A DNA stretch of 64,000 bases from Candidatus Hodarchaeota archaeon (lineage in GTDB: Archaea > Asgardarchaeota > Heimdallarchaeia > Hodarchaeales > Hodarchaeaceae), in contig JAEOTM010000143.1 of assembly GCA_016839815.1 (NCBI GenBank), positions 1-64,000 on the forward strand, given 5' to 3'. Below the pieces are notes generated by a model that saw only the letters and a list, made by a program, of their open reading frames with translations, made no database searches and was not told the DNA's origin. The first letter of the stretch is position 1, and each line of letters begins with the position of its first letter. This document shows, one piece after another, positions 4,111 to 29,640 of this stretch. Both the position numbers and the translations under genes were made by a program.

Positions 4111-4408
4111 TTTAGTGCATCCAGTTCTTCTTCGTAGTGAAGAAAGCAATCTTTCGATTATATATATTCTTAGCGTTTTTTTTAAATTTTAAGTTAAAAA
4201 AAAATTTTAATCCCTTCTCCATCTTTTTTCATGGTTATAATCTAATGTACATTTTAGAAAAAGGAAGAAAAAGAAAAAAGATTCAGTTAAATGGGAAACC
4301 GTTGAAATTTATTCTTCTTTCTTCTTCTCTTATTTCAGAATGACGAAGAAGTCTGAATAATAATTTAACAGGAAATGAAAAAAAGGAAGAAAAAAGAGGT
4401 AGCGAGTG

Positions 4409-5302: not shown

Positions 5303-5450
5303 TTTTTTAACCTACCTATCAGTCTTCTTGAATATCAGTCACATTTTAACTAGAAAATGATATATTTTAAATCCTCACTTCACGGAAAGTAACACAATCA
5401 TCTTTATCCTACCTGATACTTTCCCATGTTTGAATACAGGATACCTTCTA

Positions 5451-5864
5451 ATGGCTCCAAATCGCGTTCTTGTGGAATTTTCAATAGTAGGTCAGGATGA
5501 ATATGGCCGTGGTATATTAGATCGAAACATTGCATCTCGTACAATCGCTTTGATTAACTATCAACTTCGGGATGCGATTCAAACACGAATTGTGGTTCGG
5601 GATGGAGAAGTGAGTTTCCCTTTTAAAATCGGTAGGGCAGGCCCTGAAAATGCAAAGAAGTATGTTAAGAAAGGGGATATTGGGTACTGGACACAAAGTA
5701 ATGTGCTGATTATCTATTTGGTTGACAAAGAAATTGCATATCCAGTCAATATTGTTGGTCATATTCAACAAGAGGATTTTAAATTCTTTAAAAGTCTTAG
5801 AATCGGCCGTTCCATAAAAATTGAAAAAGTTCAGAGTGCCATTGATGAGGAAGATTATTTCTAA
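5451..5864 (+). CDS. Cyclophilin-like fold protein (TM1367/DUF369-like)
   Basis: ENAKKYVKKGDIGYWTQSNVLIIY...PVNIVG motif. Confidence 0.7.
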   Translation: MAPNRVLVEFSIVGQDEYGRGILDRNIASRTIALINYQLRDAIQTRIVVRDGEVSFPFKIGRAGPENAKKYVKKGDIGYWTQSNVLIIYLVDKEIAYPVNIVGHIQQEDFKFFKSLRIGRSIKIEKVQSAIDEEDYF

Positions 5865-5868
5865 ACTT

Positions 5869-6600
5869 TCAATGCCCAAAAAACAATCTTTCAGCCAACC
5901 GTATGGGTAAACCGACTTTTTGAATTTCTCTGGCAACATCTCTGATGTCATATGCTACACGAATCCAGTCCAGTTTTACCGAAGAATCAGGATTTATCTC
6001 CATTATACCCGCAGAAGCCCTCGGATCATTATCACGAGGTTGACCGACGCTCCCGGGATTAAAAATGACTTTTCCATTTTCATTTTGATAGATTAAGGGG
6101 ATATGGGTATGTCCAACTATCATTATGACACTCTCCCCAATCATCCCTAGTAGCTCATCCTTTCGTTGTTTAGAATCTTCAGGATAGATATAATCTGTTA
6201 AATATTCTTTAGGGGAGGCATGTGTTAGGTACATTTTGATACCATTTTCCTCGATCTCTTTGTATTCATTCTGAGCGACTATTGAAATGTATGTTTTATT
6301 GTAGGTCGTTAATTGGTCAAATGTCCAAAGTACGGCTTTTTGAGCCTCAGGGTTGAACCCATCTGCGTTTCCTGTAGCACAGGCTATATCATGGTTACCT
6401 ATGATAGTTAAATCAAAGGCTTCTGAAATTTTTACCATTTCATTGGGATGAGGTCCATAACCAATAATATCTCCAAGACAGATGGTGTAATCAATATTTT
6501 TTCCAAACTGTTCTTCGACTTCATCTCGGATTGCATTGTAAGCAGTCAAATTACTATGAAGGTCTGCCAAAAATAAAATCCGCATTGGTCTACTAGACAT
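5869..6600 (-). CDS. Calcineurin-like metallophosphoesterase
   Basis: DLHSN, GDIIGYGP, GNHD, HASP, GHTH and NPGSVGQPRD motifs. Start set at ATG 6600 because the upstream extension overlaps a terminator. Confidence 0.88.
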   Translation of the reverse strand: MSSRPMRILFLADLHSNLTAYNAIRDEVEEQFGKNIDYTICLGDIIGYGPHPNEMVKISEAFDLTIIGNHDIACATGNADGFNPEAQKAVLWTFDQLTTYNKTYISIVAQNEYKEIEENGIKMYLTHASPKEYLTDYIYPEDSKQRKDELLGMIGESVIMIVGHTHIPLIYQNENGKVIFNPGSVGQPRDNDPRASAGIMEINPDSSVKLDWIRVAYDIRDVAREIQKVGLPIRLAERLFFGH

Positions 6601-6684
6601 AAAATATCCCAAAATAACGTTTGTAACCCAACTTATTTCAGTAAAAATAGCATTTACCTTTAAATATTTTTTTTCAAAAGACAG

Positions 6685-8298: not shown

Positions 8299-11262
8299 TT
8301 AAAAGTCTATATAGAGAGCTGGCTTCATTGGTTGAGCTTTTGAAGCCTTTTTTAGTGGATCATTGATCGATTCAGATTCTGCAGCATACACCTCAATCTC
8401 ACAATTGAAATGTTGGGAAAGATATGGTTTATAGCCGTTAACTGCATCTAATTCCTTTTCTGTACCAACAAAGTCTCTCCTGAATACTTTAGCATCTCCA
8501 CGAATAGCTTTAAGCTCTTTTGCGATTTCTTTCATTTTAGGAGTGAATTTAGGACTTGCCTTCAGCGTTCCCATAATTTTCCCCATATTAAACGCACCTT
8601 CACCTAAGATTTGCGAGATTTCTGTGTATAATTCTTGCTTCCAATCTGAAGCAACGTAGATTATAACTTTTTGTGGATTCTCTCGTTTTAAATCAATAAT
8701 TGCCTGAATATCATCCGACAGGTTCTTGATGAAGTCTGTTTGAAGCATTAAATCAACTGCTTCGTCCGTTACCTCTAGTTGTGGAATTAATCTTAAAGAA
8801 CAAAAATCTTTATTCCCCAATTTTTCATTTATTTCCTCACAGACGTGTGGAATCATTGGACTGAGAACAACATTCCAATGATCGACTATATAGCGGAGTG
8901 CGGCTTGTCTTTCCTTCTTTGATATCCCAATGGATGACTTCTGATAGAATTCAATTTCTCTTAACATTAGATGAAAGGCATGTGTGACAAAATCACGACC
9001 ATTATATTGATCCAATTGATTTACAGCTTCCTTTAAATGAGATGTGCAAGCTGAAATGAATGATCGGGTCATAAAGGATGATTTTTCAACATCAAACGAC
9101 TTTACTTTTGGATACGAAGTAATCTCATTAATTAAGATCCAAAATTTTCTGAATCGAGTAACTAAGGTGTTAATACCCTCATCTGTCCAATTCAAAACGG
9201 TATCGGCAGATCCAGCTGAAACCAAATACATTCGTGTGACATCAACTGAGTATTTCTTTGGTAAATGTGCAATAGGGATCACATTTCCTGCGGATTTAGA
9301 CATCTTATCACTTTCACGAATTAGTAATTCATTCAAACTGATACATTGCAGCCAGTGTTTCTTAGGGAAAATGGCTGCATGATGAAAGATTGCGAAGGAT
9401 AGATGATTCCCGATATGTGCAATCGCTGTGTGTCTTAAATCATTAGGATACCAGTAGTGAAATTCTGTTTGCATATCAACTAAAGTCTGGGGATCGATAC
9501 CGCTCTTATTGGAGACTTTTGCTTTAGCTCCCTTCTTCAAGAAAACATAATCAAACACTTCGGGTATTAGTTTATCAGGACTAATTTCATGCTTACGAAT
9601 ATGGTGAATAATGGTATAAAACGCCATATAAATGACACTATCACTCAACGATTCAATGATCCATCCTTGTCCTTTGGTTAAAGGAAATTCTGTCCCAAGT
9701 CCTCGTTTTCTCACACAGGGGCGTTTATCTAACCATTCGAACGTTCGTTCGAATGATTTCCTGTATTTTTCAGGCGTAATTTTCATGCTGGATAGAGCAT
9801 CAACTGCTTTTGCATTCCACTTTTCATTTCCATAATGTAGAAAGAACTGATCTGGTAATACCGCGACCACAATTTCTCCACCACATCTACAGGAAGCTTT
9901 TCTTGAAGTTTCATAAAAGAAAGAAGCACGTTTTTCCTCAATTAAGGTGTGAGCTACATTATCTTTAGCTTGCTCAACTCTTTGACCTGCAAATTCATCT
10001 GTGAAGTCCATCATGATTCCATTGTAAAATTCTGCAGAGTATATCTCTTGGGTAGCAGTTTCGAGTTTGTTGGCATCATTCTGATTCTCGACACCTAATC
10101 GTTCAACTATTTCAACAGCTGGAAATTCTCCATAACCTTCAAGTGAGATCAAAGCAATTGGTTTTATTTCAGCTACTTTGTTAGCTAATCCCTTATATTG
10201 CTTAATGGGAGTAGGATTCTCCTGCAAATCTTTTAGTGCAACATAATCATAAGGAGCATGTGCAGGAACAGAATACACAACTCCTGTTGCATGATCAGGA
10301 TCAACAAACGGTGCAGGAAGGATCGGTAATGGTCGATCAGGAACACGAGGAGCGAACGCATCCATTCCTATAAAATTGGATCCTGGAACCTCCTCCAATT
10401 CTTCAATTTCGTGGTTCTGTTGGTGTAATTTGGTGACAGCATGTGAGGATACAATCCAAATTTCATCATCAATTCGAATACGTTTATATCTAGCCTCAGG
10501 ATGAATCCAGATATTAGTGGCCCCATAGATAGTCTCAGGTCGAAATGTTCCTGCAACCAGAAATTCGTCTCCTATTTGGAATTTCAACGCTACAAACTCT
10601 TGTACTTCAACCTCATTGACGTCAGCATCTTGAATATCATCTTCTCCTACTGCATTCTTATCATTCTGACACCATAGAATGGGAAATTCCCCCTGAACAA
10701 TCAGATTCTGGTCAATTAAATGTTTATATTGCCATTCAATGAATTTATTATATTCGGGATCTCCAGTTGTAAATTGTCGATGCACATCCAGTGAATATCC
10801 CATTGCTTTAAAATCATTAATCATATTCTTGGCAAAATACATAGCAACATTCATAGGTTCATTAAATGATTGTACAATCTTTTTAATCTTCTTTTCATCT
10901 TTTTCATAAATTTGAACATATTCTTCATATAGTGATATAGTGTGTTGATCCCCTTTTTCGATTTTAGCGGATACAGATAGTACCGGAGTTCCAGTGATAT
11001 GGAATGCCATTGGCCAAAGTGTATTTTTTCCCAATTGCCTCTTATACCGGCAAAACATATCTCCTAGTGTATACGTACGAGCATGTCCGACATGCAGTGG
11101 TCCCGAGGAATAGGGATAAGGGACAGTAAAGAAGAACTTTGGTATCTTCTTATCCACAACCCCTTTGAAGATATCTTCTTCCGTCCATCGCGACTGCCAC
11201 TTCTCTTCGATCGATCGTAGCTTTTCGAAAAAATCACTAATTACACTCTGTCGTTCACTCAT
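8299..11262 (-). CDS. leuS: Leucyl-tRNA synthetase, archaeal/eukaryotic type
   Basis: PYPYSSGPLHVGH, KMSKS, editing domain TFRPET / GVVYSVPAHAPYD, C-terminal KAQPMKPALY. Confidence 0.96.
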   Translation of the reverse strand: MSERQSVISDFFEKLRSIEEKWQSRWTEEDIFKGVVDKKIPKFFFTVPYPYSSGPLHVGHARTYTLGDMFCRYKRQLGKNTLWPMAFHITGTPVLSVSAKIEKGDQHTISLYEEYVQIYEKDEKKIKKIVQSFNEPMNVAMYFAKNMINDFKAMGYSLDVHRQFTTGDPEYNKFIEWQYKHLIDQNLIVQGEFPILWCQNDKNAVGEDDIQDADVNEVEVQEFVALKFQIGDEFLVAGTFRPETIYGATNIWIHPEARYKRIRIDDEIWIVSSHAVTKLHQQNHEIEELEEVPGSNFIGMDAFAPRVPDRPLPILPAPFVDPDHATGVVYSVPAHAPYDYVALKDLQENPTPIKQYKGLANKVAEIKPIALISLEGYGEFPAVEIVERLGVENQNDANKLETATQEIYSAEFYNGIMMDFTDEFAGQRVEQAKDNVAHTLIEEKRASFFYETSRKASCRCGGEIVVAVLPDQFFLHYGNEKWNAKAVDALSSMKITPEKYRKSFERTFEWLDKRPCVRKRGLGTEFPLTKGQGWIIESLSDSVIYMAFYTIIHHIRKHEISPDKLIPEVFDYVFLKKGAKAKVSNKSGIDPQTLVDMQTEFHYWYPNDLRHTAIAHIGNHLSFAIFHHAAIFPKKHWLQCISLNELLIRESDKMSKSAGNVIPIAHLPKKYSVDVTRMYLVSAGSADTVLNWTDEGINTLVTRFRKFWILINEITSYPKVKSFDVEKSSFMTRSFISACTSHLKEAVNQLDQYNGRDFVTHAFHLMLREIEFYQKSSIGISKKERQAALRYIVDHWNVVLSPMIPHVCEEINEKLGNKDFCSLRLIPQLEVTDEAVDLMLQTDFIKNLSDDIQAIIDLKRENPQKVIIYVASDWKQELYTEISQILGEGAFNMGKIMGTLKASPKFTPKMKEIAKELKAIRGDAKVFRRDFVGTEKELDAVNGYKPYLSQHFNCEIEVYAAESESINDPLKKASKAQPMKPALYIDF

Positions 11263-15908: not shown

Positions 15909-17126
15909 TTATTTTATAAAGAGATTAATATATTTTATAAAAGGGAATCCGAGGGTCACTTTTAGGGGTACACGACAGTGTACCACAGCATTTACGTCTG
16001 ATGATCTTAAACGATTAAGGTACCATTGAACTCGTTCATCACTTCCAGAGGAGATTTTGTCAAATAATCGTCTTAGTTTGTATGCACGAGTAAACATTGT
16101 CATCATCTGATTCTTCCATAAGACCTGATAATCCAAAAGGGTACCTTTTCCAGTTAGATAGCTATAGATAGTATCTGCAGCAATGGATCCAGCTACCATG
16201 GATGTAGGAATACCCCCTCCAACACTTGAAACAACTTGACATGCCGAATCTCCAACCAAAACTGTTCCTGATCTTTCATCAACAGTTCTTTTAAAAGGTA
16301 ATCCTACAGGAACAAGACCACCAATAGTAGATTCGATTGTAGCATTCTTAACAAGGTTACTGACATGAGGATGTCTTGTAATGAAGTTTTCAAGAGTTTG
16401 GGAAACAGTAATTCTACCTTTACTCATTGGAGTACGTAACCCAACTCCAACATTCGCAGTGTTTTCATTCTTCGGGATTACCCAAGCATATGCTCCTGGA
16501 GCGTAATTCCTACCAAAGAACATCTGAATATCTGTGGGATCATATTTCTGGGAGTCAATATTTGTCATTACGTGTTGTTTTACATATACGAAATGTTCCG
16601 AATTTCGATTTTCCGCCAACTCAGACCCTCTAGCGACTCGTGATCGTGCACCATCTGCTCCAACAATTACTTGCGCCTGAATACATTCTGGAGATGATCC
16701 TTCACGAGAAATCCAAACAGAATTATTATCCTTCCTTATAACTCGTGATTCTTTCCAAACTTTAGCTCCTTCTCGCCCGGCAGATTTCAGTAAATCTTCA
16801 TTCCAAGCTCCCCGATGTAAGGTATACCCTTCAAAAGGAGTTTGGATGATCTTTCCTAGAGGGGAATGGAAGCTGATTCGATTTGTCCTAGAACTGATGT
16901 ACTTCTGATCAAAAGTGAAGAAGTGTCTTGCATCAGGAACATTAGGAGTGAGAAGCGCCATTTCCTCAGGTGAAGGCATAAATTCCCCACATTGTACAGG
17001 AAAACCAGGTCGTTCCCGTTTGTCAACACCTAGTATCGATAGCTCACTATCTGCAATTTCTGCTAACTTCTTTAGTGTGGTAGCTCCTGCAGGCCCTAGT
17101 CCTACAACTAGCACATCGACTTTCAT
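15909..17126 (-). CDS. Geranylgeranyl reductase family flavoprotein
   Basis: GLGPAG FAD motif, CGE, GADG, PGAYAWVIP, GDSA...GGGI. Confidence 0.88.
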   Translation of the reverse strand: MKVDVLVVGLGPAGATTLKKLAEIADSELSILGVDKRERPGFPVQCGEFMPSPEEMALLTPNVPDARHFFTFDQKYISSRTNRISFHSPLGKIIQTPFEGYTLHRGAWNEDLLKSAGREGAKVWKESRVIRKDNNSVWISREGSSPECIQAQVIVGADGARSRVARGSELAENRNSEHFVYVKQHVMTNIDSQKYDPTDIQMFFGRNYAPGAYAWVIPKNENTANVGVGLRTPMSKGRITVSQTLENFITRHPHVSNLVKNATIESTIGGLVPVGLPFKRTVDERSGTVLVGDSACQVVSSVGGGIPTSMVAGSIAADTIYSYLTGKGTLLDYQVLWKNQMMTMFTRAYKLRRLFDKISSGSDERVQWYLNRLRSSDVNAVVHCRVPLKVTLGFPFIKYINLFIK

Positions 17127-17171: not shown

Positions 17172-18722
17172 TTAGGGAATGTTTAGATTTTCAGCCCCAT
17201 TCATTGCAAACTCGAATATCGCTTCTGGAATAACCCCTATAAGTATGATTAATATAACACCTATCCCAATTGCCATTGCATATGACATTGGAATTCTGTA
17301 CGTTCTCATAGACTCGACAGAGACAGTATGAGATTCAATTAATTCCTCTGCAGGTGGATCAAGGATCATTAGTTTTATTACTCGTATGTAATAATAGACT
17401 GAAATTGCACTATTTATTACACCAATGAGAGCTAACCATATCAATTCAGCGTAAATTGCTGAAAAGAAGATTAGTAATTTCGAGATAAAACCTGCTAGAG
17501 GGGGAACCCCTAGTAAACTTAGAAGAGCTATAGTGAGTGCAAAGACAATCCAGGGGTGTCGTTTTCTAAGACCAGCATAATCGTTTATTTCCTCACTTCC
17601 GATGGAGAAAGAAACCACTATAACAACCGTGAATGCAACAATCTTCATTAAAGCGTGTGTCAGAATATGAAATTCTGCTGCCGCCACTGAAAACCTACTA
17701 ACAGTATATCCAGCGTTTGCTGCCGCTGCCAGCGCAATTAGAATGTACCCGGCATGTGCAATGCTCGAATATGCAAGCATCCGTTTGATATTAGTTTGTA
17801 CTAATGCTACTACATTCCCAAGAGTCATTGTAAGTATTGCTAGGAATGCAAATATCATTCCCCATACTTCACCTAAATCTTTTAATCCTACAACCACTAT
17901 TCGCATAACTGCTGCAAAACCCATCGCTTTCGATCCAGCGGCCAGATATGAGGTAATAACGGTAGGAGTACCTTGATAAACATCTACTGCCCAGGCATGA
18001 AATGGTACTGCAGCCATTTTATACCCAAATCCTACAAATAAGAACATTAAAGCCAGAACGTGCAGAGGAGTAAAGCTCGAAACATCTGAAAAGGATGCTA
18101 TGACTACTGCAAGATTAGTAGGGGCTGTAGAACCGCTTGAGCTTGTAATACCATAGACGAGGGAAATTCCAAATAATATGAAGGCTGAAGACATTGCACC
18201 AATTAAAAAGAATTTCAAAGCACTCTCACTGGTTTCAGCTCTAGCTTTTTGGTATGCAGCAAGAGAATATACTGGAAGAGATGCCAGTTCCCATGCGACA
18301 AAAATCAATAGTAAATCATTTGCTGCAGCAAGCATTAGCATACCTAAAGTACCAAGACTCAATAATGAGTAATATACACCTAGATTATGATCTGTTTTCA
18401 TGTAATCTGTACTAGAAATTGCCACAAAGATCAAGACAATGAGAAAGATGATTGCAAAGAAGCGATAGAAATCATCGACAACCATTAATCCAGTGGGAAA
18501 ATCGATATCTAGAAAATCATCGGGATTTCCGAAGAGAAAAGTTATATCACCATTTACTGATAAAATCACACTATAGAGGGCAAGAAAACCTCCTATAATT
18601 GTGATAGGAGGAGATAATCTCCTCGCAACGGTGAATGCTTCTAGAAGAAGGCATAAGATCGTGGTTCCTACTAAGATTAGGAACGGAAGTAGTATTATGG
18701 CGATATTACTCATGTTGTTCAC
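17172..18722 (-). CDS. nuoN: Complex I-like subunit N
   Basis: ELASLPVY, ESALKFFL, KMAAVPFHAW, KRMLAYSSIAHAGY, GVPPLAGFISK. Confidence 0.95.
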   Translation of the reverse strand: MNNMSNIAIILLPFLILVGTTILCLLLEAFTVARRLSPPITIIGGFLALYSVILSVNGDITFLFGNPDDFLDIDFPTGLMVVDDFYRFFAIIFLIVLIFVAISSTDYMKTDHNLGVYYSLLSLGTLGMLMLAAANDLLLIFVAWELASLPVYSLAAYQKARAETSESALKFFLIGAMSSAFILFGISLVYGITSSSGSTAPTNLAVVIASFSDVSSFTPLHVLALMFLFVGFGYKMAAVPFHAWAVDVYQGTPTVITSYLAAGSKAMGFAAVMRIVVVGLKDLGEVWGMIFAFLAILTMTLGNVVALVQTNIKRMLAYSSIAHAGYILIALAAAANAGYTVSRFSVAAAEFHILTHALMKIVAFTVVIVVSFSIGSEEINDYAGLRKRHPWIVFALTIALLSLLGVPPLAGFISKLLIFFSAIYAELIWLALIGVINSAISVYYYIRVIKLMILDPPAEELIESHTVSVESMRTYRIPMSYAMAIGIGVILIILIGVIPEAIFEFAMNGAENLNIP

Positions 18723-18724
18723 CT

Positions 18725-20305
18725 TTAGAACATAAATTGATTCTCAAAGAATACTGTTGCTTCATTCATCATATCCATTAGCCAAGAGGGGAAAATACCC
18801 AGAAGTAGGGTAAAAAGACTTAGAAGTCCAAGAACAGTAAATTGGGTCCAGTGATTAACATCGTGTGCATGTGCTAGCTCAGGATTCTTATCTCCAAATA
18901 CAGTTCTTTGCAGCATCCATAGATAATATGCGGCTGTAAACACAATACCGAAGATTCCAATAAATGCTAAGATCATTTCCCATTCAAAAAGTGCAAGAAA
19001 GACTAAAAGTTCTGACCAGAATCCAGCTAATCCAGGTAAACCTGCACTTGCGAATGAAGCAAATACTAACACCGCTGCAGTAATTGGCATATTTTTAGCA
19101 AAGCCTCGCAATTTGGGTATATCACGTGTGTGTGCAGAATGGCCAATTGTTCCAGCTAAAAAGAAGAGCAACGGTGAAATAACTCCATGTGCAATCTGCA
19201 TGTATTGTGCACCAGCAAATCCTTCCTGAGTCTGAGTAGCAACACCAAGTAGAACAATCCCCATGTGTCCTACACTACTGTAAGCTACAAGAGATTTCAT
19301 ATCTACTTGTCTTAAAGCCACCCAAGCACCATATAATAATGAAATAACACCAATGAGGGCCACTAACCATGCAAACTCAGCTAGAGCTTCTGGTAAAAAC
19401 CAACCGCTCATTCGCATTAATCCATAACCCCCCATTTTGAGTAACAAGCCAGCCAAAATCATAGATCCAGGAGTAGGGGCTTCCACGTGAGCTAAGGGCA
19501 ACCATGTATGGAATGGAACACTAGGTACTTTCACAATAAACCCGAATAATAGTGCTAAGAAAACTAGTAAAATAAACCAGCCATTTCCAAATCCAGAATC
19601 GACAGAGATTTTAGTTAAAGTGGCAAAAGAGAATGTTCCTCCTCCTCCAGTTATATCGTTAAATTTAGGTGAAGCTGATTCCAACCAGATACCAATTATT
19701 CCTAAAAGCATGATCATCGATGCTACATGGGTATAGATGAAGAAGTATATTGCCGCATATTCACGTCTTGGACCACCCCAAATCCCTATGAGGAAGAACA
19801 TGGGTACTAATACCAATTCCCAGGCAACATAAAAGATAACAAAGTCAGTTGCAAGGAATGTGCCCATTACACCTGTTTCCAATAGAAGAATCATGGCGTA
19901 ATAGGCGGGTTCTCTTTCATGGATATCTTTAAATGATGCAAGGACCGCAACAACAAAGATAAATCCACTTAGAAGAACCAAAGGTAAGCTTAATCCGTCT
20001 ATTCCAAGAGAATAATTCATACCTATTGATTTGATCCACACGATGTTCTCTACAAGAACCCATTGACCGCCAGCTGCATGACCTACATGCAGACTTGTGG
20101 GCAAAAGTGGATTGTTTTCATACATCATCCAAACCAATATAGCAAGCGCAAACGTAATCAAGCTTACAAATAAAGCTAAATAACGTGCAAACCCTTCTCT
20201 CACACGGCCGAAAAACCATGTAGGTAGTGCTGCTAGAATTGGTAGAAGAAAAATTAGAGATAATACTCCAATTCCATTTTCACCAAATAATATCTGTGAT
20301 ATCAT
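18725..20305 (-). CDS. nuoM: Complex I-like subunit M (single copy)
   Basis: WELVLVPMF, KVPSVPFHTWLPLAHVEAPT, LLKMGGYG, GLPGLAGFWSE. ATG 20305 chosen over TTG 20314. Confidence 0.95.
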   Translation of the reverse strand: MISQILFGENGIGVLSLIFLLPILAALPTWFFGRVREGFARYLALFVSLITFALAILVWMMYENNPLLPTSLHVGHAAGGQWVLVENIVWIKSIGMNYSLGIDGLSLPLVLLSGFIFVVAVLASFKDIHEREPAYYAMILLLETGVMGTFLATDFVIFYVAWELVLVPMFFLIGIWGGPRREYAAIYFFIYTHVASMIMLLGIIGIWLESASPKFNDITGGGGTFSFATLTKISVDSGFGNGWFILLVFLALLFGFIVKVPSVPFHTWLPLAHVEAPTPGSMILAGLLLKMGGYGLMRMSGWFLPEALAEFAWLVALIGVISLLYGAWVALRQVDMKSLVAYSSVGHMGIVLLGVATQTQEGFAGAQYMQIAHGVISPLLFFLAGTIGHSAHTRDIPKLRGFAKNMPITAAVLVFASFASAGLPGLAGFWSELLVFLALFEWEMILAFIGIFGIVFTAAYYLWMLQRTVFGDKNPELAHAHDVNHWTQFTVLGLLSLFTLLLGIFPSWLMDMMNEATVFFENQFMF

Positions 20306-20328
20306 TGTCTTCAACCTTCAATTTTGTT

Positions 20329-22590
20329 TTAGAGGGGTAACTCCCCTGCAAATAATAAACCGATGATAATAATTATAATTGCACCTAATAATGTATAAAG
20401 TGCGTAATTCTCAACTACTCCAGTTTGAATTCGTCTAAAGTATCCCCCAGTCTTCATAACTCCTTTAGCAGAGCCTCGGATAATTCCCTGATCAATAACA
20501 CGTTCGTCTGTTGCTTTAGCTAGACCACATAATGCTACAGATGCACGGCCAGTTAAACGCACCAAACCATCAATCACTGTATCATCCCACCATCTGGAAA
20601 AACCGCAAAGCTCGTAACCAATTCGTCCAACGAACCTTACTGCATTATCGAAGATGTTTCTCTCGATCCAATTCATTGCTTCACAAAAGTATGCGTAAAT
20701 GATGTGAACTAAACCGAGGTAAAGGTCATCAATATAATAGCCCTTTTCGAGTAATCTTTGAACTCCTCGACCAATAAATGTCGATTTTACTCCTCGAATG
20801 ACTGAACGAGAGGCCTGCTGAATCCCTACTATTGAATCCTGTTCCTCAACTTCAAATTTAAACGTACCATCCTCTGGAAAGGTTACTGTGGCATTCTTTC
20901 TTGGATAATAGACCAAATATGCAAGGCCTATACCACATAAAGCGATAATAATAGAGGAAAGCTGAGTCATTACTATAAGGCTCTTTTCAATATGAGGAGC
21001 TACACCTTCTAGCCACACAGCCATGTGATGTTCTATATTCAATTGAGGAATTAGTTCAAAATTTAATACTGGGATATTTCCTAAAAGATAGATTCCAGAT
21101 AAGACTAATGACACAATTGCTAGTGTCCACAATGGTCTGGTCATCCAGCTATCAGATTCGTGTGCATGATGCTCTGGTTTTCTAGATTGTCCAGGAAATA
21201 CCAGGAACCATAATCTAAAAATGTAAAACGCTGTAAGAAATGCTGTAATAATTGATGATAACCATACAAGATAAATTAAAGGTTCGTGGGAGGCATGGTC
21301 AAGCGCATGAAGAATTATAGCGTCTTTACTGAAGAAACCATTGCCAATCCCAGCAAGGGAAAGGGATCCTATCAACATCACGATTGAAGTATGAGGCATC
21401 TTATCTCGCAATCCACCCATCTCACGAATATCTTGCGTACCTGCGCCGTGAATTACAGATCCTGCGGATAAAAATAACAAGGCTTTAAATATACCATGAT
21501 TAATGATATGGAAGACAGCTACTGCCATACCTCCAACCCCTAACCCAATAGTCATATAGCCTAATTGACTTATAGTAGAAAATGCCAATACTCCCTTAAT
21601 ATCTGTTTGAACTAAAGCAATAGTTCCAGATAAAATAGCTGTAATCCCACCTATGAGTGCAACTACAAGAAGTGCTTCAGAACTTGCGTGTTCAAAGACA
21701 AAGTAACTCCTGGCAACTAAAAAGATTCCAGCTTTGACCATTGTCGCACTATGGATCAAACAACTTACTGTTGTCGGTCCAGCCATAGCGTCTGGTAACC
21801 ACACATGCAAAGGAAATTGGGCAGATTTACCAACTGCTCCTGCAAAAATTAGCAACGCGATTACAACAGACCACATTGGATCAAATTGAATGGTTCCTTC
21901 ATGCAAATAATCGCGAATAGTAATAAAATCAAAGGTTGGACCAACATCTAATGTTTCAAGATAGAGTAGAATAATTCCAGCAAATAGAAATATATCTCCT
22001 ATCTTGGTTGTCAAAAAAGCCTTTTTCGCAGCTGATGCGGGATGAGGTTGGCCCTCAGGAACAACTTCTTTATCATAGAAATAACCAATTAGTAAATAGC
22101 TACAAACCCCCATGAGTTCCCAGCCAATAAAGAGTTGGATGAAGTTTGGGGAGAAACATAGAGTTAACATGGCGGCAGCGAACAGATTTATTTCAGCATA
22201 ATAGCGAGGAGAGCCATCATGAGACATGTAACTTCTACTATAAACAACTACAAGAAACGCAACAAGTGCTACAAGTAAGCTGACAACCGCAGATAAGGGG
22301 TCAAGTAAAACTCCTATTTCGAGATCAATATCCCCAACATGGAACCAAGTAAAAGCAATCTTTTCCTCAATATGTGCATGATCCAAAAGAAGTCGTAGGA
22401 CGATTTCTCCTGAAACAAGGAGTGTCAGTATAAAACTTCCACCTGTCGCACCAAGAGCAATTAAATTTCCATGTGCTTTTTTATCAAAGTATTTTCCGAA
22501 GAAAAGGACGATAAATGATGCTACTATCGGGATAGCTGGAATTAAGATTGCAAGATTCCCAAATATTAAATGTGTTACTTCATCAGCCAT
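20329..22590 (-). CDS. nuoL: Complex I-like subunit L with extended lateral helix
   Basis: WELMGVCSYLLIG, GKSAQFPLHVWLPDAMAGPT, HGIFKALLFL, FFSKDAI, C-terminal QTG..NYA. Confidence 0.95.
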   Translation of the reverse strand: MADEVTHLIFGNLAILIPAIPIVASFIVLFFGKYFDKKAHGNLIALGATGGSFILTLLVSGEIVLRLLLDHAHIEEKIAFTWFHVGDIDLEIGVLLDPLSAVVSLLVALVAFLVVVYSRSYMSHDGSPRYYAEINLFAAAMLTLCFSPNFIQLFIGWELMGVCSYLLIGYFYDKEVVPEGQPHPASAAKKAFLTTKIGDIFLFAGIILLYLETLDVGPTFDFITIRDYLHEGTIQFDPMWSVVIALLIFAGAVGKSAQFPLHVWLPDAMAGPTTVSCLIHSATMVKAGIFLVARSYFVFEHASSEALLVVALIGGITAILSGTIALVQTDIKGVLAFSTISQLGYMTIGLGVGGMAVAVFHIINHGIFKALLFLSAGSVIHGAGTQDIREMGGLRDKMPHTSIVMLIGSLSLAGIGNGFFSKDAIILHALDHASHEPLIYLVWLSSIITAFLTAFYIFRLWFLVFPGQSRKPEHHAHESDSWMTRPLWTLAIVSLVLSGIYLLGNIPVLNFELIPQLNIEHHMAVWLEGVAPHIEKSLIVMTQLSSIIIALCGIGLAYLVYYPRKNATVTFPEDGTFKFEVEEQDSIVGIQQASRSVIRGVKSTFIGRGVQRLLEKGYYIDDLYLGLVHIIYAYFCEAMNWIERNIFDNAVRFVGRIGYELCGFSRWWDDTVIDGLVRLTGRASVALCGLAKATDERVIDQGIIRGSAKGVMKTGGYFRRIQTGVVENYALYTLLGAIIIIIIGLLFAGELPL

Positions 22591-22601
22591 AACTTGTCAC
22601 C

Positions 22602-22913
22602 TTAGCCTTTCAATGTTTGAAAGTTAGTTGCCTCCACGGTACCATGATTCCGGTAAACTGATAGAATTATTCCCAGTCCCACCGCAGCTTCTGCTGCAGC
22701 TAATGCTATACTGATAATGACAGCTACTTGTCCTGTAACAAAGCCCACATCATTGTACAGTGCAAAAATTGCAAAGTTAATATTTGCAGAATTCAACATT
22801 AATTCGATTGCAATTAGCATGCGTACCGCTGACTTCGATCTGATAAATCCAGCAAAACCAATCAGGAATAGCATCAGAGCAACACCAAGAAAAATTGACG
22901 AATCGAAACTCAT
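22602..22913 (-). CDS. nuoK: Complex I-like subunit K
   Basis: IELMLNSANIN, AAAEAAVGLGI. Confidence 0.95.
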   Translation of the reverse strand: MSFDSSIFLGVALMLFLIGFAGFIRSKSAVRMLIAIELMLNSANINFAIFALYNDVGFVTGQVAVIISIALAAAEAAVGLGIILSVYRNHGTVEATNFQTLKG

Positions 22914-23497
22914 ACATCCTCAACCTCCTTCTTAACAAGATATACGCTACCAAGCATTGCTCCTAAAATTAGTAATCCTAAGGTTATTATTGTTATACCG
23001 TGCGTAGTAAATAATGATGTAGCTAAAGAACCAATTACTTCAGTTTCCACTCGGTAACCTTGAGAATCATAGAATGGAGCTCTACTAGTTAAATCTGGTA
23101 ATGTCCAAAAAGCATTGCTGACTTGAAAAATTGTATATACTGATATTAACAATAATAAAAATGCTCCCGCGAAACTTAGACGCCAATCCATTAATTTTTC
23201 TCTACCAGAGGATTCAAACATTGCTTCTCGCCCTGAAAGAGTAATCGCAAAGAGCAATAATACAGTAATCCCTCCTGCATAAACAATGATTTGAATCACA
23301 AATAATATAGAGGATTCAGCGTAGAGAAGGAACATCATTGCAATACCTAAAAAGCAAAAAACTAACCAGAGAACTGCATGATATACACTTTTGACATGAG
23401 TTGCTAGGAAAGCTGAACCTAATGTATAACCCACTAATAGATACAAAATAACAATATTAAATACTTCAAATAGTTCAGATGGAATTAAGAATGCCAT
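22910..23497 (-). CDS. nuoJ: Complex I-like subunit J
   Basis: QIIVYAGGITVLLLFAI; operon position. Confidence 0.92.
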   Translation of the reverse strand: MAFLIPSELFEVFNIVILYLLVGYTLGSAFLATHVKSVYHAVLWLVFCFLGIAMMFLLYAESSILFVIQIIVYAGGITVLLLFAITLSGREAMFESSGREKLMDWRLSFAGAFLLLLISVYTIFQVSNAFWTLPDLTSRAPFYDSQGYRVETEVIGSLATSLFTTHGITIITLGLLILGAMLGSVYLVKKEVEDV

Positions 23498-24135
23498 TAT
23501 TCGTTCTCCTTTTTCTCGTTTGAGTCCTTTTTCAACTCTAAAGAAATATCAAAATCAGAGTAAAAATCACCATACTCCTCTTCGTATTCTTTCTTTTGCT
23601 TTTTATATTCCTCTGGATAATAGAGTTGATAGATCTCGAATAATTTTTGGTAATTATGATAAAGTTCTGTTTTATTTTTTGTAGCAGCATCAAATCCTGG
23701 AGTATGATATAATGAATCGAATCGACAGGATTCTACACAAATACCGCAATACATACATCTTCCTGCAAAGATTTGAGGATGTTCTAAAGGTCTATCTTTC
23801 TTCCAGTGGGGAGGTTGAGGGTCAGCTGTGACCATCTCAATGCATTTATTAGGGCAATTACGCGCACAGAGTTTACACCCTGTACAATTGTAGATATTCA
23901 TACCTATTAACCCGCGTGCATTTGGGGTTAAGTGTGGTGTATGTTTGAATACATCAGATAAACTTAGATCACGATCAAGAATGGTTAGGCCTTTCTCTGC
24001 CAATTTCTCAGGGAAATAAATCGTGTCCTCATTTCTCCTATCCCCATCAGGTATAGTGAAAGGTTTTTTCCGAACCAATATTTTTCCGACATATGCCATC
24101 GGACGAGTTATCAAAAAACTGGGAACCAAACGCAT
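23497..24135 (-). CDS. nuoI: Complex I-like subunit I (2x[4Fe-4S])
   Basis: CTGCKLCARNCP and CMYCGICVESC. Confidence 0.92.
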   Translation of the reverse strand: MRLVPSFLITRPMAYVGKILVRKKPFTIPDGDRRNEDTIYFPEKLAEKGLTILDRDLSLSDVFKHTPHLTPNARGLIGMNIYNCTGCKLCARNCPNKCIEMVTADPQPPHWKKDRPLEHPQIFAGRCMYCGICVESCRFDSLYHTPGFDAATKNKTELYHNYQKLFEIYQLYYPEEYKKQKKEYEEEYGDFYSDFDISLELKKDSNEKKENE

Positions 24136-25292
24136 TAAATCACCACTAAATCTCCAAAAATAGAGGGTTCAATTAAATATAAAGCGATAACATATAGAAT
24201 ATTGATTATAGCCAATGGAATCAGCCTCTTCCATCCAATATCAAGGAGTTGATCAATTCGCACTCTCGGTAGTGCGCTTCTGATCCAAATAAACAGAAAT
24301 ACAAAAATCCATACCTTTACAGTAATGATAATGGTTGGAAGTAATGGCCAAAACTCAAAGAAATCTGTCATTACATCTACTGGGATAATTGGAAGATAAG
24401 AACCTCCCAAGAATAATGATACTCCTACAAAGGCCCCTATAAGAAGAATGAAATATTCAGTAGCCATTGACATCATGTACCGAAAGCCCGTGAGTTCTGT
24501 ACGCCATCCCATAACCAATTCTGCTTCTGCTTCGGGAACATCAAACGGAACTCGTTCGGTTTCAGCCGCTAAAGCCGTAATATACACTATAAAACCAATT
24601 GGCATTAAAACAGCAAAAGGAAGACCGAAAGCAGTAGTGGTTTGTTGTTTCGCTATCGAAAGCATCGAAAATGAATTAGTAACAATAACAACTGCTCCAA
24701 TCGAAAGTAAAAGGGGAATTTCATAAGAAATCATTTGCGCTGCTGATCTAAATGCTCCTAATAACGAATATTTATTGTTAGAAGACCATCCTGTTACTAA
24801 GACACCGATGGGATATAAAGAAAACACTGCAAATATTAAAAGGAATCCAACAGCTGGATTAGCAATGACTGCTTCTCCACCAAGAGGTAATAGTGCTCCA
24901 AGCATAAAAGGTGGTGCAACCACAAAGGCAAAGAAGCCAATATTGAAGGGAAATTTATCAGCTTTTTCTGGAACAATGTCCTCTTTTGCGAAGAATTTTA
25001 GAAATTCTGCAATATTTTGTAAAAACCCAAATTTCCAAGTGCGTCCAAAGAAATGCCCATAATTAAAATCAACGAATGTAATACCCCTCATGTTCATCAT
25101 CCTTGGCCATGCTTTGCGTTCGAGCCAAATTAACATGATTGTATTGACAATTAGAAACAGAAGAATAGTCGTCATTTCCAGGGAATCAATCAATGTAGAG
25201 CGAAGTGAATCTTGAATTGAATCGGTTAATCCTAAAAACTCAAGGAGAGTATCAACCAAACCATCGTATATTCCATAACCCATGAATCTCAC
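24135..25292 (-). CDS. nuoH: Complex I-like subunit H
   Basis: WLERK, SNNKYSLLGAFRSAAQMISYE, AETERVPFDVPEAEAEL, PRVRIDQL. Confidence 0.95.
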   Translation of the reverse strand: MRFMGYGIYDGLVDTLLEFLGLTDSIQDSLRSTLIDSLEMTTILLFLIVNTIMLIWLERKAWPRMMNMRGITFVDFNYGHFFGRTWKFGFLQNIAEFLKFFAKEDIVPEKADKFPFNIGFFAFVVAPPFMLGALLPLGGEAVIANPAVGFLLIFAVFSLYPIGVLVTGWSSNNKYSLLGAFRSAAQMISYEIPLLLSIGAVVIVTNSFSMLSIAKQQTTTAFGLPFAVLMPIGFIVYITALAAETERVPFDVPEAEAELVMGWRTELTGFRYMMSMATEYFILLIGAFVGVSLFLGGSYLPIIPVDVMTDFFEFWPLLPTIIITVKVWIFVFLFIWIRSALPRVRIDQLLDIGWKRLIPLAIINILYVIALYLIEPSIFGDLVVI

Positions 25293-26381
25293 CTATCTAT
25301 CTATTTCTCCCATACATAAATCAATACTAGCTACTATGGGTGCGATATCTGCGACTTTCACTCCTCTAAGTAAATGAGAAGACAAAGCTAAGTTGCTATA
25401 TGCTGGAGATTTAATTTTAACACGATAAGGGATTTTATCGTCGTTTCCAATAATATAAAAGCCTGCTTCCCCGCGCGGATCTGATGTCCTGAAATAAACT
25501 TCGCCTTTTGGTAGTTTTCTGGGAGCTTTTTGCGATATCTCTCCTTCACTTGGGAGTGCGTCCAAAGCTTGACGAATAATCTTTGTAGATTGAAGCATTT
25601 CATCCATTCTAACTCTATAACGAGAAAAACAATCTCCATGAGTTCGCATAGGAATCTCAAAATCTAGTTCATCATAAACAAGATAGGGTTCAATCTTTCT
25701 AATATCACCTTGGACTCCAGACGCTCTTAGTACTGGTCCAGTGGCACCCATATTTAGGGCGGTCTGTCTATCTAAAATTCCAACATTTTCAGTCCTCATT
25801 CTGAATACCTTGGAATTATCACACATATCCTCATATTCACCTATACGTTTATCTAAAAAGTGAGAAAGGCTTCGTGCATCTTCTTCAAATCCCTTTGGTA
25901 CCTCATGCTTCAATCCGCCAATTCTGAAATAGTTATACATCATTCGTGAACCAGCGACATGCTCTAACAAATCTAAGATGTATTCTCTTTCACGGAATGT
26001 TAGTGCTTGCATTGTAACTATACCTACATCCGCAGTAAATGCTGATAACCAAGTCAAGTGAGAAGCAATACGCTGTAATTCTAACATAATTACACGTAAA
26101 TATTGGGCTCTTTTACTAACCTCTAATCCCATTAATTTTTCTATTGCTAGAATATAACTCGCTTCCCAAGACATTGCACTCACATAACACAACCGGTCGG
26201 CTAATGGTTGAAAAGTATTAAAAGGACGAGATTCAGCCATTTTTTCAATCATCCGAAAAATGTAACCAATCATAATTTCGGCATCAATAACCTTTTCACC
26301 TTCAGTTCTAACTTTGAGGGTCCATAATCCGTGGTTTACTGGGTGTTGAGGGCCCATATGGATAAACATTTGTTCACTCAT
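25293..26381 (-). CDS. nuoD: Complex I-like subunit D (quinone-site type, not a [NiFe] hydrogenase)
   Basis: GPQHPVNHG, DRLCY and C-terminal DLCMGEIDR; both NiFe CxxC pairs are incomplete. Confidence 0.93.
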   Translation of the reverse strand: MSEQMFIHMGPQHPVNHGLWTLKVRTEGEKVIDAEIMIGYIFRMIEKMAESRPFNTFQPLADRLCYVSAMSWEASYILAIEKLMGLEVSKRAQYLRVIMLELQRIASHLTWLSAFTADVGIVTMQALTFREREYILDLLEHVAGSRMMYNYFRIGGLKHEVPKGFEEDARSLSHFLDKRIGEYEDMCDNSKVFRMRTENVGILDRQTALNMGATGPVLRASGVQGDIRKIEPYLVYDELDFEIPMRTHGDCFSRYRVRMDEMLQSTKIIRQALDALPSEGEISQKAPRKLPKGEVYFRTSDPRGEAGFYIIGNDDKIPYRVKIKSPAYSNLALSSHLLRGVKVADIAPIVASIDLCMGEIDR

Positions 26382-26399
26382 GTAAATACTACCTCTATT

Positions 26400-26918
26400 C
26401 TATTTTTTCGGTTGTGGTTTATATGAGAAGGGTTTTTCTGGTAATTTGTAGCTTCTTCGCATCGGGTAAAGTTCAGAAATATGCTTATGATCAAATTCAT
26501 CCCAATCGTCTGGAAGTAGTAATCTTTTCAGATTTGGATGGTTCGATACATGGATCCCGTATAAATCGAAAAGTTCCCTCTCGTGCCAATTAGCTGAAGC
26601 CCAGATAGATGTAATTGATGGTACTTCTGGATTATCACGATTTTCCAATTTGACATGTATTTGAATAACGGTTGAATCCCCATCCCACCTATCAATATGA
26701 TATACAACTTCAAAATGGGTTTCCCAGTCAACTCCCGCAATTGATTCTAATGAGGGGAAATTCAATTCATTTGCAATAAAATTCATTATTTTTAATAAGT
26801 TTTCAGCTTCAACCTGTAATTTTAATCGATTGTTTTCAGGTATTTCAGCTTGAATCAGCTTATCTCCAAGCACTTCTTTCAGTTGGGTAAGGTGAGATTG
26901 AGAATTTGACATAATCAC
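26400..26918 (-). CDS. nuoC: Complex I-like subunit C
   Basis: PSITSIWASANWHERELFDLYGI..HPNLKRLL. Confidence 0.93.
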   Translation of the reverse strand: MIMSNSQSHLTQLKEVLGDKLIQAEIPENNRLKLQVEAENLLKIMNFIANELNFPSLESIAGVDWETHFEVVYHIDRWDGDSTVIQIHVKLENRDNPEVPSITSIWASANWHERELFDLYGIHVSNHPNLKRLLLPDDWDEFDHKHISELYPMRRSYKLPEKPFSYKPQPKK

Positions 26919-27541
26919 TCGTCCTTTTGTGGTTTAGCAATACGAATTCTGTGATCAACAGGTGCAGGAGTACGATCATAAAATTCAGGTACTTCATCAA
27001 GTAATGGTTCTGGCACAAATATATTATCTTCTTTAATTTTTTCTTGCAACCGATGAAGTCCAGCCCACATTGCTTCTGGACGAGGAGGACATCCAGGAAC
27101 ATAAACATCAACAGGAATAACTTGATCTACACCTTCTAGTATCGTAGGAGCTTGCCAAAAAGGTCCACCACTAATTGCACATTCCCCTGTTGCAAGTACC
27201 CATTTCGGACTAGGCATTTGATCGTAAACGTCTCGCAATCTCGAAGCAAATTTAGTACTTACTGGTCCATTGATCCATAAAACGTCACAATGTCTCGGGC
27301 TAGCTCTGAATAAGACACCTATTCGCTGGGTATCATACCGTCCCGCTGCAGTAGCACCCATTTCAATTGCACAGCATTTCATTCCTAGATACACTGGATA
27401 TAGACTGCATCGTTGGGCCCAATTTCTCAACCAATTTGCGACAACCGTAACAAAACCACGGGATTTTGTCAAGACAACATTAGGCATTGGTTCATAGATT
27501 TCGAGCTCTCCGAGAGCTTTTAATTCATCATACTTGGCCAT
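26915..27541 (-). CDS. nuoB: Complex I-like subunit B (cluster N2)
   Basis: CCAIEM, RASPRHCD, GECAISGG, VPGCPPRPE. Confidence 0.95.
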   Translation of the reverse strand: MAKYDELKALGELEIYEPMPNVVLTKSRGFVTVVANWLRNWAQRCSLYPVYLGMKCCAIEMGATAAGRYDTQRIGVLFRASPRHCDVLWINGPVSTKFASRLRDVYDQMPSPKWVLATGECAISGGPFWQAPTILEGVDQVIPVDVYVPGCPPRPEAMWAGLHRLQEKIKEDNIFVPEPLLDEVPEFYDRTPAPVDHRIRIAKPQKDE

Positions 27542-27544
27542 TGT

Positions 27545-27913
27545 TCACACCCACGATAAGGTTCCTTTTTTTATCCAGAAAAATACGCCAAAGAGTATTA
27601 AGGCTGAGAAAATTCCCATAACGATTAGAAGAGGAGTTAAGTCCGTGACCAAACGAAATGAGTATGCCCAGAGTAAAAAGAGTATTGTGAGAATATCAAA
27701 GACGACAAAAACTACTGCAAAAGTAAAAAATTGAACATTGAATCTAACTTGAGCTGACCCAATCGGTTTTTCCCCACATTCGTATGTAGTTGATGCTTGC
27801 CGTAATCGTGGAATGCTTGGGGCCAATAGATACTGTATCAGTTTAATGGCAATGGGGCTAGCTAATCCTGCAATTAAAAAAAGTCCTAAATGAGTCATTT
27901 CTAATTCAAACAT
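27545..27913 (-). CDS. nuoA: Complex I-like subunit A
   Basis: YECGE, FVVFD, C-terminal KKGTLSW. Confidence 0.93.
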   Translation of the reverse strand: MFELEMTHLGLFLIAGLASPIAIKLIQYLLAPSIPRLRQASTTYECGEKPIGSAQVRFNVQFFTFAVVFVVFDILTILFLLWAYSFRLVTDLTPLLIVMGIFSALILFGVFFWIKKGTLSWV

Positions 27914-28200: not shown

Positions 28201-29640
28201 GTGAAAATTCTTCTTGTTGTACCCCCATCAATTCAGGAGAAAACAATTTCAAAATATCAACTTGCTTTCCTTAACTTTACTGCACCACCACTTGGATTAG
28301 GGTACATTGCTGCGGTTTTAGAAGAACAGGGTTATTCTAATATTAAGATCCTTGATTCACAGGTATATAACTTAACCCCAGATGACTATCGCAGGTATCT
28401 AAAGCGTTATCACCCTGATTTCGTAGGTATCCAGACACTTACACCAAATTTTATGGATGCTTTAAACGCAGCGCGGATAGCAAAAGAAGAAAATGTACCA
28501 ATTGTTGCTCTTGGAGGTTATCATCCGACCGCAATGCCTGATGAAAGTCTTTTACTTGGGAAAGAAAAAGTAGACCTGATCTTTCGGGGTGAGGCTGAAT
28601 ACTCTATGTTAGAATTCCTTCAAAAGTACGAACATGGTAATGATTGGTCAAATATTAAAGGAATATCCTTTTTGACTGATACACCTCAACATAATCCACC
28701 TGCACCCCTAATTAAAGACTTAGATTCCTTACCATTACCTGCACGGCATTTACTTCCCATGGATAAATATAAAATCTTTGGATCGGCCTTCCCAGCTACT
28801 TCAATTATCACAAGCCGAGGGTGCCCATATTCATGTGATTTTTGTAGCGTATCAGCTTTTTATGGAGCTAAATGGCGTCCAAGATCTCCAGAGAAAATCG
28901 CGGAAGAAGTACGATTCTTAAGAGAACAAATGGATATTAAGGCGACAGCATTTGTTGATGACCTGTTTTTCATCTCAAACAAACGAGTAAAAAAACTCTC
29001 ACTTGCTCTTTCACAAATTGACGATATTTACTGGGGAGCTACAACTCGTGCTGATAGGGGAGATCTTGAATTATTGACTCTAATGCGAAGAGCTGGTTGT
29101 CGATTAGTTTTTGTAGGAGTAGAATCTGGAAATCAAGCAATCCTTGATCAAATTCACAAAAAAACCACATTAAACCAGATAGAACAATATTTTGATAATA
29201 TTAAGAAATCTCGGATGGATTCTCTTGCATCTGTCTCGTTTGGATTCCCAGGGGAGACAAAAGAGACCATATCTTCAACTGTGGATTGGATTATTGATAG
29301 ACTTGATCCTTCACTAGCACTATTCACGCTAGCTACCCCTTATCCTGGAACTGAATTTTATGAGAAGATGCTTGCAGAAGGAAGGATAAAGGAACAAGAT
29401 TATTCTAAATATAATCTCTTCTATCCAATCACAGAATTATCTGGTTTAACAAGAGATGAGATGAAAACACTAACAAAAAACGCCTACAAACGATTTTATA
29501 TGCGTCCACGGAAAATATTGCAAAATACAGTCCGTGAATTAAGATATTCCATGGAAAGTTACGGATTTAGTCAATTTCTTTACAATAGTCAGGTCTTTGC
29601 AAAAGGTATTATCAATATGAAAATACTAACATCCATGTAA
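28201..29640 (+). CDS. B12-binding (class B-like) radical SAM protein
   Basis: N-terminal PPLGLGYIAAVL / GGYHPT cobalamin-binding domain; SRGCPYSCDFC; GVESG; TPYPGT. Confidence 0.9.
   Translation: MKILLVVPPSIQEKTISKYQLAFLNFTAPPLGLGYIAAVLEEQGYSNIKILDSQVYNLTPDDYRRYLKRYHPDFVGIQTLTPNFMDALNAARIAKEENVPIVALGGYHPTAMPDESLLLGKEKVDLIFRGEAEYSMLEFLQKYEHGNDWSNIKGISFLTDTPQHNPPAPLIKDLDSLPLPARHLLPMDKYKIFGSAFPATSIITSRGCPYSCDFCSVSAFYGAKWRPRSPEKIAEEVRFLREQMDIKATAFVDDLFFISNKRVKKLSLALSQIDDIYWGATTRADRGDLELLTLMRRAGCRLVFVGVESGNQAILDQIHKKTTLNQIEQYFDNIKKSRMDSLASVSFGFPGETKETISSTVDWIIDRLDPSLALFTLATPYPGTEFYEKMLAEGRIKEQDYSKYNLFYPITELSGLTRDEMKTLTKNAYKRFYMRPRKILQNTVRELRYSMESYGFSQFLYNSQVFAKGIINMKILTSM

Follow-up and report, generated by a model that had tools for sequence, protein, structure and literature searches.

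The window analyzed here, 64,000 nucleotides of contig JAEOTM010000143.1 (contig C112 of G000, a 4.24-Mb Asgard metagenome-assembled genome with 89.5% completeness and 7.8% contamination), carries a complex I operon of a Hodarchaeales archaeon whose NuoL subunit has a lateral helix (HL) of four 26-residue modules, counting the motif-less anchor unit, where every solved enzyme has two. Near-identical proteins carry public names that assign the genome to Hodarchaeales/Kariarchaeaceae in the class Heimdallarchaeia. The operon comprises 11 genes, nuoA-B-C-D-H-I-J-K-L-M-N, at 17172–27913 on the minus strand (as are all window coordinates below unless a strand is given), each assigned from its open reading frame (ORF) and Pfam family, and this contiguous nuoABCDHIJKLMN set is that of a headless 11-subunit complex I. 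ORFs and Pfam revealed no nuoE, nuoF or nuoG within the operon, between nuoD and nuoH, or on the flanks. A preliminary description of this DNA had the complex lacking its NADH module, which holds for the operon; other contigs of the genome, however, carry two NuoF-like (Complex1_51K) genes (G000:C182:28130-28639, plus strand, and G000:C135:47951-48370, minus strand). The nuoL gene (20329–22590, 753 amino acids) sits between nuoK and nuoM. It is identified by matches to PF00662 (9.1e-15) and PF00361 (9.8e-71), by an AlphaFold2 model built with 150 homologues that has a mean predicted local distance difference test (pLDDT) score of 89.9, and by VIA-align Z scores of 45–48 to solved NuoL/NdhF/ND5 chains. 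It is followed by the only nuoM (18725–20314, 529 amino acids from a TTG start; Pfam, genome-wide PF00361 search and start region) and by nuoN (17172–18722, 516 amino acids; ORF, Pfam and the same genome-wide search). The nuoM ORF starts with TTG at 20314 (window 20305–20314), and an in-frame ATG three codons (9 nt) downstream (MISQ...) may be the real start.

The lateral helix is encoded at 20419–20730 and comprises NuoL residues 621–724. Translation confirms the 104 residues previously counted from the first Asp of YYIDD to QTG, as well as the placing of Cys at +16, +42 and +68 and of Asp at +28, +54 and +80 when that first Asp is counted as 1. Module 0, the anchor unit (residues 621–646, 20653–20730), begins with an Asp that aligns with D542 of E. 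coli. Two extra modules follow: module 1 (residues 647–672, 20575–20652) has a partly decayed motif of the D-x4-D-G type and a conserved Cys662, and module 2 (residues 673–698, 20497–20574) has a conserved Cys688 and is the unit lost from a three-module paralogue, La, of related genomes described below. Module 3 (residues 699–724, 20419–20496) is the canonical last module, ends in RRIQTG and has the same consensus in two-, three- and four-module classes of NuoL. The protein then ends in the terminal anchor helix, transmembrane helix (TM) 16 (residues 725–747 in the AlphaFold2 model, 20350–20418). The corresponding stretch is 48 residues in E. coli and 50–53 residues in 69 cluster representatives, in line with the figure of about 50 given for standard NuoL, and aligning the C-termini of NuoL proteins bears out the anticipated excess of about 52 residues as exactly two 26-residue modules (104 versus 48–53 residues). 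Upstream, between TM15 and the HL, lies a clade-specific insertion of about 55 residues (residues 562–616, 20743–20907) that has no counterpart in E. coli or in the alignment's other Heimdallarchaeia families and is predicted, at a pLDDT of about 90, to form a beta-hairpin and two short helices.

The 26-residue period of the HL is far beyond chance. A BLOSUM62 autocorrelation of its 104 residues gives +0.59 at lag 26 and −0.2 to −1.7 at all other lags from 8 to 59, while shuffled HL sequences give −1.11 ± 0.25 at lag 26 and none of 5000 shuffles attains the observed value; the mean autocorrelation of 51 orthologues has the same lag-26 peak. The period had been presented as three exact 26-residue units, starting at residues 641, 667 and 693; the period itself stands, although the third unit as quoted has 27 letters, and the pairwise identities of the units are 9/26, 6/26 and 3/26. 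No tandem repeat is present in the DNA of the HL region, and because no DNA-level repeat remains the module duplication is old. In modules 0–2, the hydrophobic moment has the same local phase (295–325 degrees). At 100 degrees per residue, 26 residues leave a drift of 80 degrees, so that one local distortion is needed per module, and keeping the helix face and TM16 in register would probably allow lengthening by whole modules only, each with a local correction. Each of these three modules also has one Cys (C636, C662 and C688) at an exact spacing of 26 residues, invariant among 48 orthologues. The last module has no such Cys, and neither do four-module NuoL proteins from other lineages.

In the AlphaFold2 model, the HL of the Hodarchaeales NuoL begins and runs as in solved enzymes. 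VIA-align places model residues 9–669 on residues 3–630 of T. elongatus NdhF1 with a root-mean-square deviation (rmsd) of 2.4 Å over 575 residues, and model residues 9–668 on residues 5–600 of M. smegmatis NuoL. Across the canonical NuoL, Nqo12, ND5 and NdhF1 chains (3RKO, 4HE8, 8E9G, 6HUM), the core superposes with Z of 45–48 and rmsd of 1.9–2.4 Å over 540–590 residues, and the HL start Asp, the HL path and the QTG-TM16 anchor are shared. The HL and its entry differ: solved chains have about 48–52 HL residues and one motif unit (a single unit in solved NdhF1 and Paracoccus NuoL), whereas the Hodarchaeales protein has 104 residues and three motif units, together with the 55-residue insertion before the HL. 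We considered whether this insertion makes the HL start farther out and so uses up one module, which is ruled out by the alignment of E. coli residue 562 with model residues 641–643, on which structural and sequence alignments agree, and of NdhF1 residue 630 with model residue 669. Modules 0 and 1 of the model cover the full canonical HL path spanning NuoM and NuoN, and the remainder continues straight, so that by the model the last two modules and TM16 would overshoot the canonical end by about 78 Å (an estimate from 52 residues at 1.5 Å each). The model consists here of a helix at 617–688, a low-confidence break, a helix at 703–723, and TM16, with block-mean pLDDT of at least 86 through residue 670, 75 for residues 671–680 and below 50 for residues 687–709. 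A fragment model of residues 560–753 made with orthologues only gives one long helix at 619–698, at low confidence (pLDDT 58.8, predicted template modelling score 0.21), and neither the full-length model nor this low-confidence fragment model folds back into a hairpin or bundle. A complex prediction of NuoL residues 673–753 with NuoH, NuoJ and NuoA scored 0.00, below the mark, and weighs neither way. PDB sequence searches found no solved structure with three or more HL modules.

The length of the HL is fixed across the order. It is exactly 104 residues in all 51 of the Hodarchaeales and Kariarchaeaceae NuoL sequences that have the region, and the extra modules 1 and 2 show roughly the same degree of conservation as modules 0 and 3. 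This bears on the possibility that the extra modules are slack, either left over from an ancestor that had more pump genes or tolerated duplications without a role that bulge from the arm. In favor of slack, module number shifts often on the NuoL tree, the La paralogue has lost exactly one module, and E. coli tolerates most small changes in the HL (PMC3274701). Idle residues would not, however, be expected to stay at exactly 104 in 51 of 51 sequences while C-terminal identity falls to 57% in a near-identical set, or to be conserved as well as the canonical modules with three invariant Cys at 26-residue spacing, and no hairpin or bundle is predicted. We consider slack the least probable of the explanations, and an unlikely one.

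The preliminary description proposed instead that the membrane arm is extended, in a '3M'-like complex, by several copies of the single NuoM or by NuoM paralogs encoded elsewhere in the genome. The order nuoL-nuoM-nuoN without duplication, on which this proposal was based, agrees with ORFs, Pfam and the genome-wide PF00361 search. The paralogs do not exist in the genomes searched: PF00361 genes in the whole genome number three (L, M and N), and no orphan nuoM- or mrpD-like gene was found there or in the one-contig genome of the same genus, G009 (4.9 Mb, 96% complete), which has the same operon, a 104-residue HL and again only three PF00361 genes. A search with the HL and TM16 also found no second copy or stub of this piece in G000, and NuoL of 740–775 amino acids is the norm in the genus. 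What is left of the proposal is that the HL acts as a ruler, in which each module lies over one antiporter-like subunit and HL length sets copy number, giving an arm L-M-M-M-N (or one in which M or N is repeated otherwise) whose several copies all come from the single nuoM. This would be a homo-oligomeric stage before the gene duplication of '2M' complexes, and H+/2e− would go up from 4 to about 6. Ribosome-binding-site strength, taken as a proxy for nuoM dosage, showed nothing distinctive.

Other members of the same class provide cases both for and against such a ruler. In the same genus, a second, hydrogenase-like cluster (L015, L016, L017 and L018, in G012, G002, G010 and G007) consists of B, a fused or long D, H, I, K, L and one antiporter-like gene, and its NuoL-like subunit has a one-module HL of 24 residues. 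In family f3 (G028, L006:2184-13042), the order J-K-B-C-D-H-I-M'-L-M-N includes an extra NuoM-like gene before nuoL, for four antiporter genes in all, and the HL has three modules and 76 residues. Both fit one module per subunit spanned. Family f5, in contrast, has an HL of 78–79 residues and no antiporter genes beyond L, M and N. The genes that separate nuoL from nuoM in this family were considered as hidden subunits and rejected, as they are unrelated, vary between genomes and in some cases lie on the opposite strand.

In two genomes of the genus, G007 and G014, the nuoL of the operon is reduced to a stub. At the nuoL position of their operons there is only a 73-codon ORF (L012:7046-7267 and L013:7951-8172, minus strand), which encodes the last HL module, QTG and TM16. 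Between the two species, the ratio of nonsynonymous to synonymous substitution rates in this stub is 0.19 at a synonymous divergence of 0.55 (58 conserved codons), and the G007 stub opens with a copy of the last helix of the 562–616 insertion. Full-length NuoL is encoded elsewhere by tandem paralogues on the plus strand (L004:1747-3915 and 4352-6601; L005:6001-8163 and 8564-10822). One, La, has an HL of 77–78 residues that is without exactly module 2, and the other, Lb, has 104 residues; La nests within the four-module clade on the NuoL tree. Three- and four-module proteins thus stand side by side in both genomes with a single common nuoM and nuoN, which speaks against HL length setting the number of pumps. 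The La/Lb pair adjoins a pyridine-nucleotide-disulphide oxidoreductase and a flavodiiron-like gene.

To place these proteins in the wider NuoL family, we surveyed 149 further NuoL representatives (50% clustering). Their HL lengths fall into classes of 50–53 residues (69 proteins), 76–79 residues (58) and 101–105 residues (7), and over the family the steps are about 24, 50, 78 and 104 residues. Four-module NuoL of 101–105 residues recurs elsewhere, in P0063, P0076, the P0104 clade, P0123, P0176 and P0177, with three motif units as in Hodarchaeales, and wherever the gene context is readable there is a single nuoM. P0104 has the 11-gene operon nuoA-N followed by an ATP synthase operon, and every member read of its clade (one of them named Caldisericia) has an HL of 103 residues; P0177 has K, L, M and N and then an unrelated gene, and P0123 has L, M and N. 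Unlike the Hodarchaeales protein, these lineages have neither the periodic Cys nor the insertion before the HL. On a FastTree tree of the NuoL core (114 rows, HL columns omitted), module number changes at least 21 times. The Hodarchaeales clade lies beside three-module sequences, the nearest of which, P0056, is a stand-alone block of L, M and N only, and the other four-module NuoL are scattered, with independent origins on this tree. It is thus common in unrelated lineages for a three- or four-module helix to occur with a single nuoM, and length alone is therefore no proof of extra pumps: the length of the helix is not a reliable pump counter. Among about 330 NuoL, none has an HL longer than 105 residues save three with an inserted hydrophobic hairpin; helices that appeared to have 5–7 modules were artefacts of the regular expression used to anchor the HL start, and by motif count had 3 or 4 modules or an inserted hydrophobic hairpin.

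The three exceptions are bacterial NuoL of 746–752 amino acids (P0296, P0317 and P0323), with an insertion of about 60 residues between the first HL motif unit and the last module whose two hydrophobic stretches resemble a transmembrane hairpin. These hairpins show that the strap can accommodate other membrane elements along its length, and one could imagine that one or more non-antiporter membrane partners encoded outside the operon lie beneath the two extra modules of Hodarchaeales. Small lineage-specific subunits of this general kind occur in cyanobacterial and mitochondrial complex I. The conservation of the extra modules, the lack of an extra PF00361 gene and the clade-specific structured insertion at the HL start are also consistent with a partner. 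Filling about 78 Å of arm would, however, demand many transmembrane helices, and no conserved extra membrane gene was found within the operon or next to it, whether in the window, in five further genomes of the genus, in P0104 or in P0177. A partner of this sort seems improbable to us, though slightly less so than slack.

The reading that we tentatively favor, at a little short of an even chance, is that the HL is a strap helix in a headless 11-subunit complex I and that the enzyme has a three-pump arm with an over-long clamp. The extra modules would be ancient in-frame duplications of a module bearing a D-x2-(V/I)-(I/V)-D-G motif, and module number would be a property of the strap and not a pump count. 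The enzyme would most likely keep one NuoL, one NuoM and one NuoN, with the added length of about 78 Å taking the clamp past NuoN and along NuoK, NuoJ, NuoA and NuoH or the membrane surface, tying the whole membrane arm together without a change in H+/e− ratio. The strict 26-residue step may be intrinsic to the helix, since an amphipathic, membrane-anchored helix could be extended only by whole, phase-corrected modules, and quantised length need not reflect a partner subunit. Several directly observed features (anatomy, conservation, gene counts and recurrence elsewhere) enter into this reading. Support comes from the presence of only L, M and N in G000 and G009, from f5, from P0056, from P0104, P0177 and P0123, from the frequency of module changes on the tree, from the nuoM and nuoN common to La and Lb, and from the lack of any HL above 105 residues (hairpin-bearing proteins aside), which would fit a limit set by M, N, K/J/A and H. 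There is also published precedent in the one-nuoM HL insertion of Manganitrophaceae (PMC9040806) and in the tolerance of E. coli for most small HL insertions (PMC3274701).

Several observations weigh against an over-long clamp. AlphaFold2 predicts one continuous helix (617–688 in the full-length model, 619–698 in the fragment) without fold-back. Across all length classes a single consensus covers the final module, the QTG turn and the beginning of TM16, which can be read as a common docking site on NuoN. An invariant length (51 of 51) and extra modules conserved like canonical ones are not what idle slack would produce, and within the class HL length follows differing gene counts (24 residues with L and one antiporter, 76 residues with four antiporter genes). 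Moreover, the placement of the extra modules, contact with NuoK, NuoJ, NuoA and NuoH included, and the unchanged number of pumps are what we infer, not what we observe.

Much of this would be accommodated by the ruler, which we regard as possible though less likely than the clamp. HL length is quantised, and the rule of one module per subunit holds in the gene-matched cases of the class and in the 2M and five-pump complexes as these are presented in PMC9040806. In independent lineages every extra module retains its Asp/Gly motif. The extra modules are as well conserved as the canonical ones, one anchor consensus holds for every length class, and the first two modules of the model already span the canonical path with the rest running straight. 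A ruler would suit a ferredoxin-driven enzyme, which by textbook potentials may have about 130–180 mV more driving force than an NADH-driven one. The lack of any HL above four modules would fit an energetic ceiling; a limit of four modules fits the extent of an arm made up of M, N, K/J/A and H, and would equally fit a ceiling of about 6 H+/2e− from ferredoxin to quinone. Against the ruler, six H+/2e− with ferredoxin and menaquinone would probably be near the thermodynamic limit, and we know of no complex I that holds the same antiporter subunit more than once. The mismatch between HL length and gene number is also so common that enzymes with four or five pumps would need to be widespread and to have escaped notice until now, and the 2M complexes described in PMC9040806 encode distinct NuoM paralogues. 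The extended arm first suggested for this locus thus finds support in geometry, order-wide conservation, the straight model and the tracking of length with pump genes within the class, and is opposed by gene content and by the unreliability of length as a counter.

In 2M complex I, a 26-residue HL insertion has been tied to a second, distinct nuoM (Chadwick et al. 2018, ISME J 12:2668, as relayed in PMC9040806), and such complexes are, according to the same account, often thought to use donors or acceptors other than NADH. The Hodarchaeales NuoL resembles the 2M protein, as presented there, in having in-frame HL insertions of the same kind of 26-residue module. It differs from that description in having two extra modules instead of one and no second nuoM in the genome: G000 and G009 have the whole-module lengthening of the HL without an additional NuoM/MrpD-like gene. 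A five-pump complex I has also been published (PMC9040806). The closest known parallels are Complex_I_1 and Complex_I_2 of Ca. Manganitrophaceae (Yu et al. 2022), in which a 26-amino-acid HL insertion occurs with no extra NuoM in the cluster; Yu et al. left undecided whether the complex takes extra pumps or is in evolutionary transition (PMC9040806). The Hodarchaeales operon likewise combines a lengthened HL with a single nuoM in the cluster. Manganitrophaceae, however, have one extra module and other nuoM/mrpD genes in the genome, whereas Hodarchaeales have two extra modules and no antiporter-like genes besides L, M and N. The HL insertion with a second nuoM, the five-pump complex and the insertion in some one-nuoM clusters are thus already published (PMC9040806), and what is new is the presence of two extra modules, order-wide, without extra pump genes in the genome. 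Among the papers searched, just one names both Hodarchaeales and NuoL; it presents models of Heimdallarchaeia complex I without reference to the HL.

Since 2018, HL length has served to recognize complex I with extra pumps from sequence, and this locus is the strongest form of that signature, with two extra modules fixed order-wide and no pump gene besides L, M and N in a one-contig genome. One possibility is that the signature misleads, in which case H+/e− inferences in metabolic reconstructions need revision; the other is that a single subunit can enter complex I in several copies, and this would be a new principle of assembly. If the HL were a ruler, Hodarchaeales would have a five-module, ferredoxin-driven complex I of about 6 H+/2e− with a single nuoM product built in two or three times, and pump number could be altered by one in-frame duplication or deletion of 78 nt, as between La and Lb. 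Hodarchaeales are among the closest archaeal relatives of eukaryotes. They are central to bioenergetic models of the archaeal ancestor of eukaryotes (10.1101/2024.07.04.601786).

A flavoprotein gene of the geranylgeranyl-reductase family (15909–17126) lies directly after nuoN, as it does in G009, G007, G014 and G012, and a B12-binding radical SAM gene (28201–29640, plus strand) flanks the operon on the other side. Genes of both types also occur beside the stand-alone block of L, M and N in the outgroup P0056 (L030).

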